Assembly (NCBI GenBank): GCA_038883655.1
Contig: JAVZLQ010000005.1
Span: forward strand, 10,854-74,853
Origin: Candidatus Bathyarchaeia archaeon
GTDB taxonomy: Archaea > Thermoproteota > Bathyarchaeia > Bathyarchaeales > Bathycorpusculaceae
DNA length: 64,000 bases
Reading direction: 5' to 3'
The translations under genes were made by a program, and so were the position numbers. Positions 1,780-11,356 of the stretch are shown one piece after another (position 1 is the first letter of the stretch; every line of letters starts with the position of its first letter). The notes beneath the pieces were generated by a model that ran no database searches, had not been told where the DNA came from, and worked only from the letters and a program-made list of their open reading frames with translations.

Positions 1780-1911
1780 TTAGCCTCGGTTTCTTTTGGT
1801 GTAAATTTGTGAGCCTCTTATGTGTCCACACCTAGGACATTTTAAGGGATTTTCCACTCGAGGAATCCACTCATGGCCGCACTTTTCGCATTTTATTTTG
1901 AGCAGTTGCAT
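1780..1911 (-). CDS. Small Zn-finger protein (43 aa, MQLLKIKCEKCGHEWIPRVENPLKCPRCGHIRG...)
   Basis: Hand-translated; CxxCGHxWxPR...CPxC pattern typical of archaeal viral Zn-ribbon proteins; below ORF-track cutoff. Confidence 0.65.
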   Translation of the reverse strand: MQLLKIKCEKCGHEWIPRVENPLKCPRCGHIRGSQIYTKRNRG

Positions 1912-1989
1912 GGTTTCACTCTCATTATCTTCATTATGCGGAAGTTTTATATAAGTCAAGATGTAGCATAATTAAGTGGAAGTGGTTAT

Positions 1990-2616
1990 ATGACAAAACC
2001 GAAAAACAATTATCATATGTCAAAAGAGCCAAATGATTTGCCACTATTACAAAGAACTATAATTACACATTTAGCTCAAAATGGGCCTCAAACCATTAAT
2101 GAAACTGTGCAAAACATCAAGCACCATTATAAGCCTACATGGATAGCCTTCGGAAGCCTTCAGAAAAAAAAGTTAATTCAAAAAGTTAATTCTAAAAAGT
2201 ATCGAGGAAGAGAATACTCTCAATATTGGCTTACAGAGAAAGGCGTAATCTACGCTTTAGCTAAGGAAATGAACCCTCAAAAACTGCTAGTTCACACGGA
2301 AAACGTTTACGGAAAAAACAGCCTAATGGCCCTGCTTGTCAAATTGGCTCAGGCTTTAGGCCCTAAGGCTTACCGTTTCTGCTTAAACCTAATGCTTGAT
2401 AAGGGCTTAACAGAGGAATCCGTTTCTATCGCTTTGAACACAAGCCTAATCTACGCCTCACAGCTTAGCGGTAAGAACCCTCAAACCCTAATGAAGGAAA
2501 TCTTAACGGTTCTGAAGGATTTTCCACAGTTTTATAGCCTATACAAACAAACCTTTCATGGAATCAAAAAGGGAATTCTTAGCCTTTCTGAAATTGTGGA
2601 AGGTGTTAAGGTATGA
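1990..2616 (+). CDS. Winged-helix DNA-binding protein (putative element repressor)
   Basis: wHTH pattern ending YWLTEKG; divergent from the leftward element operon with TTTATATAA between. Confidence 0.65.
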   Translation: MTKPKNNYHMSKEPNDLPLLQRTIITHLAQNGPQTINETVQNIKHHYKPTWIAFGSLQKKKLIQKVNSKKYRGREYSQYWLTEKGVIYALAKEMNPQKLLVHTENVYGKNSLMALLVKLAQALGPKAYRFCLNLMLDKGLTEESVSIALNTSLIYASQLSGKNPQTLMKEILTVLKDFPQFYSLYKQTFHGIKKGILSLSEIVEGVKV

Positions 2617-3017
2617 GGTTTGAGCACGGATTAAATCACTCGAGTAGTTTAGCCCAAATCACTCGAGTAAAACCAGCTAAAAAAGAACCTAGAAAAACAG
2701 TCGGAATCACACTTCCACCTCATTTAATAACGGAAGCAAAAAACCACAACCTAAACATAAGCAGAATCTGTGAACAAGCTCTCACATCAATTCTGGAATA
2801 TCTGCAAACTCAAAATCAAACCGAAAGCTCTAAATCTTTTAGTGAAGCTTTTCTTCAGAGAAAAGGTTCGAGGGCCCGTAGCTCAGTAAGGATAGAGCAC
2901 CGGGCTTTTAACCCGGGGGTCCCGGGTTCAAACTTGAAAAGGCACAACCTTCAAGGAACAGTTCCCGGCGGGCCCGCCAACAACAATAATTCTTTAACAC
3001 TTTTTTATAAAAAATAG
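2613..3017 (+). CDS. CcdA/RHH-like protein, probable N-fragment of a split tyrosine integrase, overlapping tRNA-Lys
   Basis: TVGITLPPHLITEAKNHNLNISRICEQAL resembles CcdA-type RHH; frame continues through the tRNA gene (RARSSVRIEHRAFNPGVPGSN). Confidence 0.55.
   Translation: MRFEHGLNHSSSLAQITRVKPAKKEPRKTVGITLPPHLITEAKNHNLNISRICEQALTSILEYLQTQNQTESSKSFSEAFLQRKGSRARSSVRIEHRAFNPGVPGSNLKRHNLQGTVPGGPANNNNSLTLFYKK
2633..2669. repeat. 14-bp direct repeat AAATCACTCGAGTA x2 with palindromic ACTCGAGT core
   Basis: Exact copies at 2633-2646 and 2656-2669. Confidence 0.85.
2872..2979 (+). tRNA. tRNA-Lys(UUU) with 30-nt T-loop intron (58/59, 2932-2961); CCA encoded
   Basis: GGGCCCG/CGGGCCC acceptor stem; CCGGG-CT-TTT-AA-CCCGG anticodon arm; BHB with central helix GTTC/GAAC and inner helix CTTGAA/TTCAAG. 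Confidence 0.9.
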
Positions 3018-3102
3018 AAAATATAACTTTTAAAAACACATCCTTTGTAGTAATATTTGTGATTGCGGAATATTTGTTAAAGTATACGCCATTAAATTAT
3101 GC

Positions 3103-4827
3103 TTGATGATTATGAATGCCACGCTGAAAAAGGTAGTGCTAATACTTGCAATTACCGTTACACTTCTAGGTTTTGCAAGAATAAATGTCATGACAGCTCG
3201 CTCGGATGCTCGACAAATAGACCTTTTCACTCAAAAAATCCCATACAGCGGGAAAGGGCCAAATGTGCCAAGCGATTCTTTTCAACCGCAGGAACTTGTT
3301 ATCCTTTACGCTAATGTGACCTACAATGATTGTCCTGTTGCAAACAAGCTTGTGGCTTTTCAAGTCAACAACCCGGCAAATAAATTTTGGAACATAACAA
3401 TTGTCGGTGTAAATGCCACGGACAGCAACGGAATAGCCCAATTTTCTTTCCGCATTCCCTGGTCTATGGAGAATTCTGAGGATATAATTTTTGGCGAATG
3501 GTTTTCGGTGGCAACGGTGGATGTGGGCGGCGAAGTTGTCATGGATACTTTAATTTTTAAGGTTGGGTGGATTGTTGAAGTAACAAAATTGGAAACTTTG
3601 GACAAATATTTGATTCCAAAGACAAAATTTTTCCGTGAAGAAGCCATAATATTCAACTTGACGGTCAAAAATATAGCCTTTACACCTAAACTTGGCACTA
3701 TAACAATTGATGCACAGGACGCAGCTAACAATCCAATAATACATGTCGAAATAGAAAACGCAGTATTCCAGCCTGGCGTAAATTGTGTAAACATAACCTC
3801 CAGCATACCTAAAAACAGTGCTGTCGGAGAAGCAACTGTTTCAGCGGTTGCTCACACAGCATTGCCGGAAAAAGGTGGAGTTCCCTATTGTCCACCATTT
3901 TATTCAACTTTCGAAATACTTGCCCCCCCAATCAAGCAATATTATTTGACCGTCAAAACGGAACCACATAACATAAGCATGCTTCACCCAATATATGGCG
4001 AAGGATGGTACAATGAGGGATCAGTCGTTAACCTTTCTGCCCCCAAGGAAATCCTATATGTAAACATAGGTGTCCGTTACTTGTTTCTTTACTGGGATGT
4101 GGATGGCCATACTCAAGGTTCAGGTGTCAACACGATTTCAGTGGTTATGGATAATAATCATACTGCCACGGCGCACTACGTTCTGCAATATTATCTGACT
4201 GTGAAGTCTCCTTATGGAACATCCGGCGGCGCTGGATGGTACAACGCTGGGTCAGTTGCTTATGCCACTCTTAATTTTGGGCTTCTAGATCATTGGAATG
4301 GAACGCGTAGAGCCTTTACTTGTTGGAGTGGCGATGCTTCTGGAATGCTCTATAATCAGAGTAACCCCATACTTATGGATGGACCGAAGACTGCGATTGC
4401 GCTTTGGAAGACGCAGTTTTACCTTTCCGTTAGGGTGGATCCAATCGGAATAACTGCGGTTTCTGGTGAGGGTTGGTATGACGCTGGGGCGAATGTTACT
4501 TTAAGTGCCCCGCATGTTTCTGATTATAATTTCAGCCATTGGGATGTCAATGGGGTTTCTCAAGGTTCAGGAGTTAGCATCATAACGATTTTTATGGACG
4601 CGCCTAAAACTGCAACTGCACATTATGTTAAAGAGGCGGCTCCATGGGCTTGGTTCCTTCCAGAATGGTTCTACTGGCTTCTTTTACTGCTTCTACTCTT
4701 ACTAGTTCTAATTTTATTGATCTTGTATTACCGCAGAAGAAAAAGGAAAGAGACTGGAGAATTTCATTCCGGATGGACTGCATGGTACTATTGTTATAAT
4801 TTGCGTGAAGCCAGAAAAATTGGTTGA
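3103..4827 (+). CDS. Membrane-anchored surface protein with Ig-like and InlB-B/Flg_new-like repeats
   Basis: Signal peptide; repeated G(E/A)GWY...MD...TA units; C-terminal Leu-rich TM followed by RRRKRK. Confidence 0.8.
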   Translation: MMIMNATLKKVVLILAITVTLLGFARINVMTARSDARQIDLFTQKIPYSGKGPNVPSDSFQPQELVILYANVTYNDCPVANKLVAFQVNNPANKFWNITIVGVNATDSNGIAQFSFRIPWSMENSEDIIFGEWFSVATVDVGGEVVMDTLIFKVGWIVEVTKLETLDKYLIPKTKFFREEAIIFNLTVKNIAFTPKLGTITIDAQDAANNPIIHVEIENAVFQPGVNCVNITSSIPKNSAVGEATVSAVAHTALPEKGGVPYCPPFYSTFEILAPPIKQYYLTVKTEPHNISMLHPIYGEGWYNEGSVVNLSAPKEILYVNIGVRYLFLYWDVDGHTQGSGVNTISVVMDNNHTATAHYVLQYYLTVKSPYGTSGGAGWYNAGSVAYATLNFGLLDHWNGTRRAFTCWSGDASGMLYNQSNPILMDGPKTAIALWKTQFYLSVRVDPIGITAVSGEGWYDAGANVTLSAPHVSDYNFSHWDVNGVSQGSGVSIITIFMDAPKTATAHYVKEAAPWAWFLPEWFYWLLLLLLLLLVLILLILYYRRRKRKETGEFHSGWTAWYYCYNLREARKIG

Positions 4828-5174: not shown

Positions 5175-5334
5175 CGGGCGGTAGCTCAGCCTGGTAGAGC
5201 TTCCGAGCCTGCTGACAAGGCTCAGCAGACGGAGACGCTGTAGACGCCTACCAATGGTGGGCGTTCCATTTCAGCCTGCCAGGCGCACAACAGAAACCGG
5301 AGTGTCGCAGGTTCAAATCCTGCCCGCCCGACCA
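5175..5334 (+). tRNA. tRNA-Tyr(GUA) with introns at 30/31 (5206-5236) and 37/38 (5244-5295); CCA encoded
   Basis: C1-G72 and A73 Tyr identity; splicing yields TCCGG-CT-GTA-GA-CCGGA; BHB central helices CTTC/GGAG and CTGT/ACAG. Confidence 0.88.
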
Positions 5335-10378: not shown

Positions 10379-11356
10379 TTAGGTTTCGTAACCTCCGAAG
10401 CTTACTACGAGGAACACGAAATACATGAATAGTAGAACGGCACTTTCTCGCCAGCTTACTTTTTCGCTCGAAAGGAAATACCATAGGAAGAGGTTGACTA
10501 TGAGGGAGAACATTGCCAGTTTCGAGAAAGCCACCATGTTAACTATGAAGCTTGATGTTATTAGGCTCGTGCCTAAGATGCATGTTATGTTTATGAAGCA
10601 GCTGCCTACAATGTTGCCTAAGGCTAGGTCTAAGTGTCCCTTTTTTGTCGCCTCCACAGCTGTTGCAAGTTCTGGCAGGCTTGTGCCCAAAGCTACTATT
10701 GTTGAGCCTATAACCACTGGAGGTATGCCTATGCTGTCAGCGATGAATCTTGCCGATGAAACTATGAAGTTTGAGCTTACTATTACGCCGGCCACCCCCA
10801 AAAGAGTCAAAACCACGTATAAGCGTAGCTTTTGCCTTTCCTCTCCTAACGCGCCTTCTTCCTTCACTTTCCTTATTTTTGAGAGTTGATAAACGTAGAA
10901 GATGAAGATTGCGAGAAGGACGACGCCTATGAACCTGCTTGCGTATCCGAGGTAAAGCAGAATCAGCGGAACAACCGAGGCTACGAAAATGCCGAAGTAT
11001 AGGCTTCCAATTTCCTCTTTTGCCATGTTTGGATAGAAGCTTGTGTAGTTTGGACATTTTATCACTGCCAGTAAGAAGCAGACACCGAGGATTAGGCATA
11101 TGTTAACTATGTTTGAGCCTAAAACGTTGCCTATCGCCACGCCTATGGATTCTTGTCCAATCGCCGCAAAAACTGAAACGAAAAGTTCTGGAAGTGATGT
11201 TGAAAAGGCGACAAGTATGAAGCCAACCGTTGTTTTGCCCATGCCAGTTATGTCAGCAACCCTAACAGAATTTTTAATCGTCAAATCGCTCGACTCATTC
11301 AGAATCACCAATGAGATAATGAGAATTAAGATGTTGACCAGCAAACCTTCGAACAA
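10379..11356 (-). CDS. Na+/Ca2+ antiporter (CaCA family)
   Basis: Two alpha repeats STSLPE/GTSLPE with GNxxGS; TTG start after AAGGAG. Confidence 0.88.
   Translation of the reverse strand: MFEGLLVNILILIISLVILNESSDLTIKNSVRVADITGMGKTTVGFILVAFSTSLPELFVSVFAAIGQESIGVAIGNVLGSNIVNICLILGVCFLLAVIKCPNYTSFYPNMAKEEIGSLYFGIFVASVVPLILLYLGYASRFIGVVLLAIFIFYVYQLSKIRKVKEEGALGEERQKLRLYVVLTLLGVAGVIVSSNFIVSSARFIADSIGIPPVVIGSTIVALGTSLPELATAVEATKKGHLDLALGNIVGSCFINITCILGTSLITSSFIVNMVAFSKLAMFSLIVNLFLWYFLSSEKVSWRESAVLLFMYFVFLVVSFGGYET

Follow-up and report, generated by a model that had tools for sequence, protein, structure and literature searches.

A stretch of 64,000 nucleotides (nt) from a thermophilic Bathyarchaeia archaeon (termed the window, i.e. 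the whole stretch analysed) carries at its left side the right-hand part of an integrated 5.6-kb element. The last open reading frame (ORF) of this element, at positions 2613–3017 on the forward strand, stays open through a complete gene for tRNA-Lys(UUU). With high confidence, we identify this ORF as Int(N), the N-terminal fragment of an SSV-type (type I, or 'suicidal') tyrosine integrase, an enzyme whose gene contains the attachment (att) site of the element, attP, and which is split on integration. The C-terminal catalytic fragment, Int(C), is found at the other end of the element, behind an exact copy of the att sequence, and relatives of the host have the same tRNA gene unoccupied. The part of the Int(N) coding sequence that precedes the tRNA holds a conserved hairpin and a candidate promoter, and there the interpretation becomes more tentative.

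The window corresponds to positions 10854–74853 of contig JAVZLQ010000005.1 (here C5) of an assembly of 1.42 Mb in 19 contigs, which is 93% complete (G000). The sequencing runs that contain the stretch carry the label hot springs metagenome, and no RNA run is listed among them. Plain numbers below are window positions; the prefix C5 marks contig positions, which were used where the analysis was extended leftwards in the same genome, outside the window.

Attachment sites and the split gene

A search of the genome with positions 2800–3020 reveals a 44-bp direct repeat. One copy is at 2870–2913 (C5:13723–13766, forward strand) and forms the core of the right attachment site, attR; the other, attL, is at C5:8137–8180, outside the window, and is identical in 44 of 44 positions. 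The two copies are spaced 5,586 bp apart. The window holds the right-hand 2.87 kb of the element (1–2869), which extends 2,717 bp further left to attL. The repeat covers positions −2 to +42 of the tRNA gene by linear count, i.e. it runs through the anticodon loop to standard position 40.

Int(N) proper consists of 2613–2912 on the forward strand, that is 100 integrase codons up to the end of the att sequence. The remainder of the ORF, 2913–3017, is host DNA read across the rest of the tRNA gene to the first chance stop, and is not native integrase. At attL the frame of Int(N) passes through the repeat without a stop and enters a 278-codon ORF, Int(C) (C5:8180–9016, forward strand, outside the window). 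The unsplit gene would leave the att sequence in the frame REKSVNW..., unlike the read-through tail at attR.

An initial annotation, made from the window alone, had anticipated much of this. It read the last ORF of the element, on account of its CcdA-like or ribbon-helix-helix (RHH)-like N-terminus and its open frame through the tRNA, as Int(N) of an SSV-type integrase situated at attR. The ORF (134 aa) has both properties, and the reading is supported by the exact repeat, the continuity of frame, the archaeal integrase domain PF16795 in Int(C), and the empty sites. A direct repeat of about 2872–2930 was expected to the left, followed in frame by a catalytic domain; both are there, the repeat in the form of the copy of 2870–2913. 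The annotation was also right that the att sequence takes in the 5′ end of the tRNA, with the element supplying the upstream sequence, and that recombination lies 5′ of an intron at 58/59, well before which the att identity ends.

The two integrase fragments

Int(C) matches the Pfam family PF16795 (Phage_integr_3, 'Archaeal phage integrase') with 31.9 bits against a cut-off of 27 (E 1.4e-7), and matches a PHROG integrase family as well. Enzymes of this type have the residue pattern R..K..xxR..R..Y, in which the C-terminal tyrosine is the nucleophile. In an alignment of 33 Int(C) sequences, to which the SSV1 and pTN3 enzymes do not belong, R150, K195/K196, R239, R261 and Y271 are invariant. The pattern given in the literature is R..K..AxxR..Y (PMC5495485).

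The AlphaFold model of Int(C) has a predicted local distance difference test (pLDDT) value of 85.5. Its best fold match in the PDB is archaeal XerA (4a8e, E 2.4e-3), and tyrosine recombinases make up 14 of the first 15 fold matches listed. The catalytic domain of the SSV1 integrase (3uxu/3vcf) is matched with a probability of 1.00, a target template modelling (TM) score of 0.60–0.63 and a root-mean-square deviation of 4.7–4.9, at an E of only 0.05–0.08; 4dks (SSV1) and lambda integrase are also among the matches.

In Int(N), the RHH domain spans residues 27–71 (nt 2691–2825). These residues match Pfam CcdA, PF07362, with 28.3 bits against a cut-off of 22.4, and this is the sole Pfam match of the ORF. 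Structural modelling by AlphaFold gives pLDDT values of 78–97 over residues 21–70 and predicts an extended segment followed by helices at 36–44 and 49–74. After residue 76 the model is disordered (pLDDT <50), and residues from about 75 to 100 represent a disordered linker together with the tRNA-encoded codons. Modelled as a homodimer, residues 20–78 score 0.48, whereas the best of three controls scores 0.00; of proteins with solved structures, 20 of 30 same-chain pairs and 1 of 23 single chains reach the mark of 0.48. In the dimer model the strands pair in antiparallel fashion (31 with 31, and 29 with 33), contacts agree between runs to at least 96% and partner pLDDT is at least 71. This pass may reflect likeness to solved RHH dimers rather than binding. 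The N-terminal part controls multimerisation in the SSV1 and SSV2 integrases (PMC8371274), and by analogy the RHH domain may serve to multimerise the integrase described here.

Empty sites in relatives

The left flank of the element, a PadR gene beside CdvA, is found in 40 of the 41 genomes searched, G000 included. In all nine loci examined in relatives, PadR leads directly into a continuing tRNA-Lys(UUU) gene and the site is unoccupied. Two of these genomes belong to the same genus, G003, with a flank identity of 96%, and G001, with 93% and a contig that ends inside the tRNA; the absence of the element from this site in both indicates that the insertion is recent. At G021, the gene that lies to the right of the element also directly follows the tRNA.

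Contigs of sequencing run X1, which has 86% of the words of the stretch, bridge attL into Int(C) with no differences, and their depth over the element (12–18) is accompanied by a depth of 16.4 over the right flank. A loose end at C5:8178 in this run was considered as an excision product and rejected; it stems from a co-occurring relative whose empty site carries an intron, as in G003. This close relative, with its unoccupied intron-bearing tRNA-Lys, is present in the same sample at about threefold the depth of this genome.

A family abundant in Bathyarchaeia

Int(C) has 657 homologues at E≤0.001. Those that are named come from Bathyarchaeia or Bathyarchaeota, one being also labelled Nitrososphaerota, and PF16795 is precomputed on 119 of the 120 listed. 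The homologues start in tRNA-encoded peptides, which derive either from the sense 5′ half of a tRNA gene (SSVRIEH, SSARLER) or from the antisense 3′ half (GFEP, GIEPV, DLNPR). One of them, P0082 (358 aa), has an AN1-type zinc finger (PF01428) before the tRNA-encoded peptide, in place of the RHH.

Int(N) is represented by 161 clusters at E≤0.001; 148 of the 150 listed are 51–186 aa in length, and 313 metagenome stretches add to the abundance of the family. The initial annotation had named stand-alone CcdA-like homologues that end before the tRNA as evidence that would speak against it. Such proteins are not seen: among 38 homologues read, the 37 of Int(N) type all run past the domain, most of them into recognisable tRNA-encoded peptides. 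Where the match ends, ARAGORN finds a tRNA in 36 of 38 GTDB genome loci (14 sense, 22 antisense), all but two of which are titled Bathyarchaeia or Bathyarchaeota, and in 63 of the 80 loci from metagenomes (42 in sense, 21 in antisense orientation), the others being at a contig end (10) or having no tRNA called (7). In total, 99 of the 118 loci fetched abut a tRNA gene, and none has a stand-alone gene that ends before it.

A detectable att repeat within 10 kb is present in seven other loci. In four (L028, L047, L034 and L053), the Int(N) frame is continuous through the repeat and reading stays open for 285–290 residues past it; the remaining three have a short repeat and a closed frame. Two of these, L028 and L047, are joined to the Int(C) family described here, and the other two (L034, 5199–6068; L053, 511–1365) to a different tyrosine-recombinase family, with the residues SSGLRRGEV ... 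KDLRDFF ... QGRSPRNVLAKHY. The same type of RHH Int(N) is therefore in frame with two catalytic families, i.e. the RHH module has been combined with different catalytic modules, which points to modular exchange of Int(N) and Int(C).

On contig C1 (C1:208592–209443, reverse strand; locus L140) the genome has another Int(C) of this family, with 52% identity, in an open frame of 316 aa. It opens with an antisense tRNA-encoded peptide (RAGFEPATT). ARAGORN finds no complete tRNA in this locus, and no second RHH Int(N) is found in the genome. The locus resembles a further integrated element, or what remains of one.

Evidence against a split, functional integrase

A number of results weigh against the interpretation given above. 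Sequence searches with Int(C) find no characterised relative: the PDB, searched with Int(C) alone and with the 33-sequence profile, returns no recombinase, the solved SSV1 domain included; tblastn against 72,556 plasmid records at E≤0.01 returns none, the presence of pTN3 among these records being unconfirmed; tblastn against a phage collection has no match; and none of the fold matches reaches E≤0.001. The failure of the sequence-only searches indicates that this Int(C) family is remote from characterised enzymes. An unsplit gene is present in 0 of the 118 fetched genome and metagenome loci, and a word-limited search for longer Int(N) homologues yields one protein, again a tRNA read-through. 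The assembly, 93% complete, has no intact integrase, the sole other copy of the family being the split Int(C) on C1. A contiguous form does exist in P0098 (344 aa), where an RHH tail, a tRNA-encoded peptide and the integrase are in one protein; it lacks the first half of the RHH domain. The circular junction, which had been suggested as a sign to look for, was sought in the contigs of four runs, as was an excised or empty site of this strain. Neither is seen among the matches listed, which is no evidence of absence. A scan of viral contigs for unsplit forms gives one weak locus only, L058.

It might be argued that the ORF at 2613–3017 is a stand-alone RHH regulator or antitoxin of CcdA/CopG type at the edge of an island, with the tRNA frame open by chance. 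CcdA is indeed its sole Pfam match, and nearly all listed homologues are as short as a regulator of this kind would be. Set against this are the frame, which past the second copy of the att sequence enters an integrase domain both here and in four other loci, the adjacency to a tRNA gene in 99 of the 118 fetched loci with no homologue read stopping before one, and the contiguity of P0098. Nor do the ORF list and Pfam reveal a CcdB-type toxin partner, the next feature downstream being the tRNA. Since the gene lacks a stop ahead of the tRNA and is followed by no toxin-like ORF, Int(N) is not classed as a CcdA antitoxin, and a stand-alone protein is very improbable. A separate consideration is that the element may be dead and permanently trapped, both integrase fragments being pseudogenes in decay. 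Suicidal integration does inactivate the integrase gene (PMC8371274), and the lack of an intact family member in the assembly and of a circular form among the matches listed would fit such an end state. However, the repeats are identical throughout, both fragments are open and of full length, and the insertion is recent in view of the two empty same-genus sites. In addition, excision in trans by related integrases, and a weak activity of Int(C) alone, are described for SSV1/SSV2 (PMC8371274). That the element is dead is rather unlikely.

The tRNA-Lys(UUU) gene and its introns

The tRNA-Lys(UUU) gene at 2872–2979 (forward strand, CCA encoded) is complete and is the sole complete gene of its kind found in the assembly. 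It is identified by Rfam, by ARAGORN after removal of an intron, and by comparison with orthologues. On the unmodified sequence ARAGORN calls no tRNA at 2872–2979, and the Rfam tRNA model matches the 5′ part of the gene with 38.9 bits. After about 30 nt are removed in silico from the T-loop, ARAGORN calls tRNA-Lys(UUU). Since every removal of 29–31 nt tried was accepted, the exact intron boundaries are beyond the resolution of this program. The 30-nt non-canonical intron at T-loop position 58/59 is placed at 2932–2961 (forward strand) by an intron-less orthologue in G015 (T-loop TTCAATT) and by a hairpin within the intron in the predicted fold; an orthologue in G006 has a homologous T-loop insert. 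An intron at 58/59 had been proposed in the initial annotation, with which the G015 orthologue and the ARAGORN call agree. Restoration of the cloverleaf on removal, together with the intron-less orthologue at the same locus, qualifies the insert as a non-canonical intron, a candidate for the bulge-helix-bulge (BHB) type.

The intron content of orthologous tRNA-Lys(UUU) genes (loci L011–L019) varies even within one genus. A canonical 37/38 intron is present in seven of the nine unoccupied genes, 3 nt before the end of the att identity. It is the only intron in G003, G021, G009, G036, G024 and G025, and occurs together with the 58/59 intron in G006. The occupied gene of G000 has the 58/59 intron only, G015 has no intron, and G001, whose contig ends inside the tRNA, is without the 37/38 intron. 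There is an idea that introns protect tRNA genes against integration. The 37/38 introns interrupt the att sequence and might present a host barrier to this integrase family. For recombination, the integrases of pTN3 and pT26-2 depend on the anticodon loop together with the stem next to it (PMC8371274); a 37/38 intron would separate the two, which fits the idea of introns as a shield.

Another lysine tRNA gene of this genome, tRNA-Lys(CUU) at C2:167947–168084 (locus L002, 1441–1578), contains two introns and shares 89% identity with tRNA-Lys(UUU) over the T-loop intron and the 3′ half, a likeness that suggests intron sharing or gene conversion between the isoacceptors.

A hairpin and a candidate promoter before the tRNA

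Directly before the att sequence, at −28 to −3 relative to the tRNA, there is a palindrome with 11-bp arms (2844–2854 with 2859–2869, forward strand), a 4-nt loop and one conserved G.G mismatch. The hairpin had been noticed in the initial annotation and is real: 10 of the 11 pairs form, with an energy of −10.3 kcal/mol (z = −2.6 relative to 500 shuffles). The 60 nt before the tRNA were aligned for 41 distinct sense-class loci and this one (42 sequences), duplicate upstream sequences and loci with <60 nt upstream being excluded. Paired cells amount to 82.1%, as opposed to 68.4 ± 1.1 in shuffles, and cells changed on both sides of the stem number 68, as opposed to 25.5 (none of 500 shuffles attains the observed value in either case). 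Covariation scores 0.342, compared with 0.108–0.173 in slid registers. Mean minimum free energies are −8.6 kcal/mol for the sense class and −7.8 kcal/mol for the antisense class, compared with −2.0 and −2.8 in control windows 80 nt upstream. Pair counts refer to the sense-class alignment only; the antisense alignment, in which loop lengths shift, was judged by folding energy. A role as a 5′-leader element of the tRNA was considered and rejected as a general explanation because the antisense class also keeps the hairpin.

The initial annotation saw no clear TATA box at the normal distance from the tRNA. This calls for a qualification: a BRE/TATA-like motif (BRE, transcription factor B recognition element), CCGAAAGCTCTAAATC, is found at 2821–2836 on the forward strand (−51 to −36 from tRNA +1) and inside the Int(N) coding sequence, where alignment and class counts point to it. 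In the genome's own tRNA genes the A/T peak is at about −36 to −27 and TATA-like hexamers are spread over −50 to −25; CCGAAAGCTCTAAATC is therefore a few bases upstream of the mode, yet within the range.

In 33 of the 41 distinct sense-class sequences the motif, CCGAAAGCTCTAAAT, reads AGCTC and then T-W-W-A-T (TAAAT 22, TATAT 6, TTTAT 4, TATTA 1). At the codon that varies, AAA, ATA and TTA occur, which encode Lys, Ile and Leu; what is kept is thus the A/T bases and not the residue. The motif anchor is at −45 to −47 in 36 of the 40 anchored sequences, and the spacing to tRNA +1 is held even in the 10 of 42 rows that have a 2–3-nt insertion between motif and hairpin. In the antisense class, where the tRNA retains its own promoter, T-W-W-A-T is present at the aligned place in 0 of 41 sequences. 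With a BRE-TATA pattern defined post hoc, the counts are 31 of 41 (sense) and 0 of 41 (antisense). A motif that is nearly identical, CCGAAATATCTAAAT, precedes a native gene of this genome, tRNA-Ala(UGC), at −49 to −35. An earlier TATA score based on A/T runs separated the classes poorly, with the T-rich hairpin arms in the scoring window, and was replaced by this anchored comparison.

Conservation, spacing, the difference between classes and the likeness to tRNA-Ala lead us to propose the motif as the BRE/TATA promoter of the rebuilt tRNA-Lys, an assignment towards which we lean on the basis of sequence comparison. Some points tell against it. The promoter patterns were defined after the data had been seen, and the sequences are related, so their counts are not independent. 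Native genes have their modal A/T peak a few bases downstream of the motif. In addition, conservation of the motif's ESS part extends to the antisense class, and conservation at the protein level is possible. The position of the motif and the shared ESS would suit a different source of tRNA transcripts, namely read-through from the promoter of the integrase operon, with CCGAAAGCTCTAAAT kept for protein or recombination reasons. A TATA-like TTTTATATAA is present at 1945–1954, ahead of a gene for a 208-aa protein that probably shares an operon with the integrase, and read-through agrees with what has been stated for pTN3. Read-through does not account for a T-W-W-A-T core that is common in the sense class and absent from the antisense class, for three chemically unlike residues whose codons have only A/T bases in common, for a spacing that is held in spite of insertions, or for the near-identical motif at the native tRNA-Ala(UGC), and for these reasons we find it a good deal less probable.

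The hairpin, in turn, could be an RHH operator or an arm-type site, like those bound by the N-terminal domain of lambda integrase, in which case bound Int(N) would regulate the tRNA or the integrase promoter. The palindrome adjoins the att sequence in every class, RHH proteins bind DNA as dimers and the Int(N) homodimer model passes, and the hairpin would overlap the predicted transcription start. On the other hand, the outer stem covaries freely (pair 42–66: GC 13, CG 9, AU 8, UA 4), which a folded nucleic acid fits better than a protein-binding site. Furthermore, in a group of elements at tRNA-Phe (L083, L092–L095) Int(N) is 71–77% identical to the one described here, and the hairpin at the same place is wholly different in sequence (TATCGGAAAC/GTTTCTGATA); a different hairpin beside a similar Int(N) argues against a sequence-specific RHH operator. 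An operator function is thus improbable, and the candidate promoter with its adjoining folded element is the interpretation carried forward below.

A proposed mechanism

From the anatomy of the locus, attP would have recombined with the chromosomal tRNA-Lys(UUU) gene over its first 42 nt, with the result that the integrase gene was split in two. Int(C), with the core-binding and catalytic domains, would now be at attL behind the native tRNA promoter and a 42-nt tRNA stub. Int(N), with the putative RHH dimerisation and DNA-binding domain and the disordered linker, would run into the rebuilt complete tRNA at attR. The tRNA-Lys(UUU) gene would thereby be left without its own upstream region, and its transcription would depend on DNA of the element. 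The DNA that encodes the linker would have, in order, the BRE/TATA-like promoter (−51 to −36), the hairpin (−28 to −3) and attP. Excision would need integrase supplied in trans.

Perhaps the linker DNA is mainly cis-acting and functions as a portable tRNA promoter joined to a hairpin and attP. Sense elements would bring the promoter with them and their antisense sisters, which enter from the 3′ side, would have let it lapse, the host tRNA-Lys would come under control of the element, and the 37/38 introns would be a possible barrier. We offer this combined proposal tentatively, giving it somewhat less than even chances.

If the proposal is true, elements that enter a tRNA gene from the 5′ side bring a replacement promoter written into the codons of the integrase, and an essential host tRNA, tRNA-Lys(UUU), is placed under the control of a mobile element. 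The split-integrase architecture is abundant in Bathyarchaeia, and within one family tRNA genes are used at the 5′ half (sense) as well as at the 3′ half (antisense). The family represents natural comparative material for tRNA expression after displacement of a promoter, for the role of the integrase N-terminus and for protection by introns. There is also a consequence for annotation: in metagenome-assembled genomes of Bathyarchaeia, the short ORFs called 'CcdA-like' and the fragments called 'integrase' number in the hundreds; they are the two halves of one gene and mark the borders of elements.

Other genes of the element and its surroundings

The gene for the 208-aa protein (1990–2616, forward strand) has a stop codon that overlaps the start codon of Int(N) (ATGA). 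Its homologues are directly 5′ of Int(N) in L028, L033, L041, L065, L066, L068 and others. On the reverse strand there is a gene for a 297-aa protein (846–1739), without a family match in Pfam, PHROGs or NCBIfam; homologues with 60–67% identity adjoin those of Int(N) in metagenome loci L064, L066 and L068, and the protein possibly has a role in replication or partition. A 59-aa protein (1780–1959, reverse strand) has weak zinc-ribbon matches in Pfam, all under the cut-off.

The element also encodes a second tyrosine recombinase, which is unsplit and consists of the catalytic domain only (215 aa; C5:10263–10910, reverse strand, its first 19 codons being 1–57 of the window). It matches Pfam PF00589 with 41.1 bits and a PHROG integrase, and NCBIfam XerA weakly (38 bits, cut-off 220). 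Homologues are present in loci L065 and L057. This recombinase could function in multimer resolution, or could provide an exit route for an element whose main integrase is split. Further left, at C5:9033–9554 (reverse strand), is a gene whose 173-aa product is a membrane protein containing the motif HExxH; it weakly matches metallopeptidases of the M78/SprT-like and DUF6782 kinds, as well as a PHROG metallo-protease. The call of this gene overlaps that of an adjacent 184-aa DUF6471-like helix-turn-helix protein. PHROGs and NCBIfam give no match for the 297-aa, 208-aa and 184-aa proteins, and scans with Pfam and PHROG recognise no viral structural genes in the 5.6-kb element.

Directly 3′ of the tRNA, at 3103–4827 (forward strand), is a gene for a 574-aa protein that has a signal-like N-terminus, beta-rich repeat modules and, at its C-terminus, a membrane anchor with a basic tail behind it; this protein is kept at the same position in G021. 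A tRNA-Phe(GAA) gene at 5175–5331 (forward strand) has a long intron of about 85–92 nt (Rfam 43.1 bits; ARAGORN calls it with the intron).

Comparison with known systems

Suicidal integrases have been listed for Sulfolobales, Thermococcales, Archaeoglobales and Methanosarcinales (PMC8371274). The main text of that work nowhere mentions Bathyarchaeota, RHH, CopG or ribbon-helix-helix, and a survey of Bathyarchaeia viruses speaks, in its accessible text, of just 'a putative integrase' in proviruses (PMC10848311). No description of this integrase family was found in the literature searched, subscription journals and supplements being outside the search. The mechanism itself is known; what is added here is a new lineage, an RHH domain fused to the integrase, a large family that occurs in two orientations, a hairpin that is conserved, and a candidate tRNA promoter embedded in the integrase gene.

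Lambda integrase provides an analogy for an extra N-terminal DNA-binding domain on a tyrosine recombinase; the fold of its arm-binding domain is not known to be an RHH, and binding of arm sites by Int(N) is only hypothetical here. The integrases of SSV1 and SSV2 (Fuselloviridae) share with this one the PF16795 domain, the fold of the catalytic domain, the partition into Int(N) and Int(C), and an att sequence of 40–50 bp in a tRNA gene. They differ in that the solved SSV1 domain is not matched at the sequence level by Int(C), and in that no viral structural genes are recognised in this element. A small cryptic element of Thaumarchaeota, NitEve-E3, resembles it in having a split SSV1-like integrase, no viral genes and a host among the non-crenarchaeal TACK archaea (PMC6563490). 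NitEve-E3 is a single reported case whereas there are hundreds of loci here, and the likeness is by description only (PMC6563490).

The pT26-2 family, found in Thermococcales, Archaeoglobales and Methanosarcinales, has the same suicidal architecture, but targets the 3′ end of the tRNA. In that family Int(N) and Int(C) have separate histories (PMC7253208); here, one RHH type of Int(N) occurs with two catalytic families. The RHH is not mentioned for the pT26-2 family in the accessible text of that report (PMC7253208).

The closest known analogue is the integrase of the plasmid pTN3 (Thermococcus nautili) and of TKV4, which likewise has attP in the integrase gene and is split on integration. The pTN3 att sequence is in the tRNA's 5′ half, with 41 bp shared and a minimal site of tRNA-Leu 2–44 (PMC5495485), comparable with the 44 bp from −2 to +42 found here. 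In both cases the rebuilt tRNA is parted from its original promoter (PMC5495485; PMC8371274). The pTN3-like integrases have been called 'unique in archaea' for their use of the tRNA 5′ half (PMC8371274); the family described here uses it too and has antisense 3′-half members in addition. The host of pTN3 belongs to the Thermococcales, whereas here the hosts are Bathyarchaeia and the N-terminus of the integrase is an RHH domain. Finally, the tRNA at the pTN3 site is expressed from the integrase promoter (PMC8371274), and for the Bathyarchaeia element a promoter internal to the integrase gene is proposed instead.

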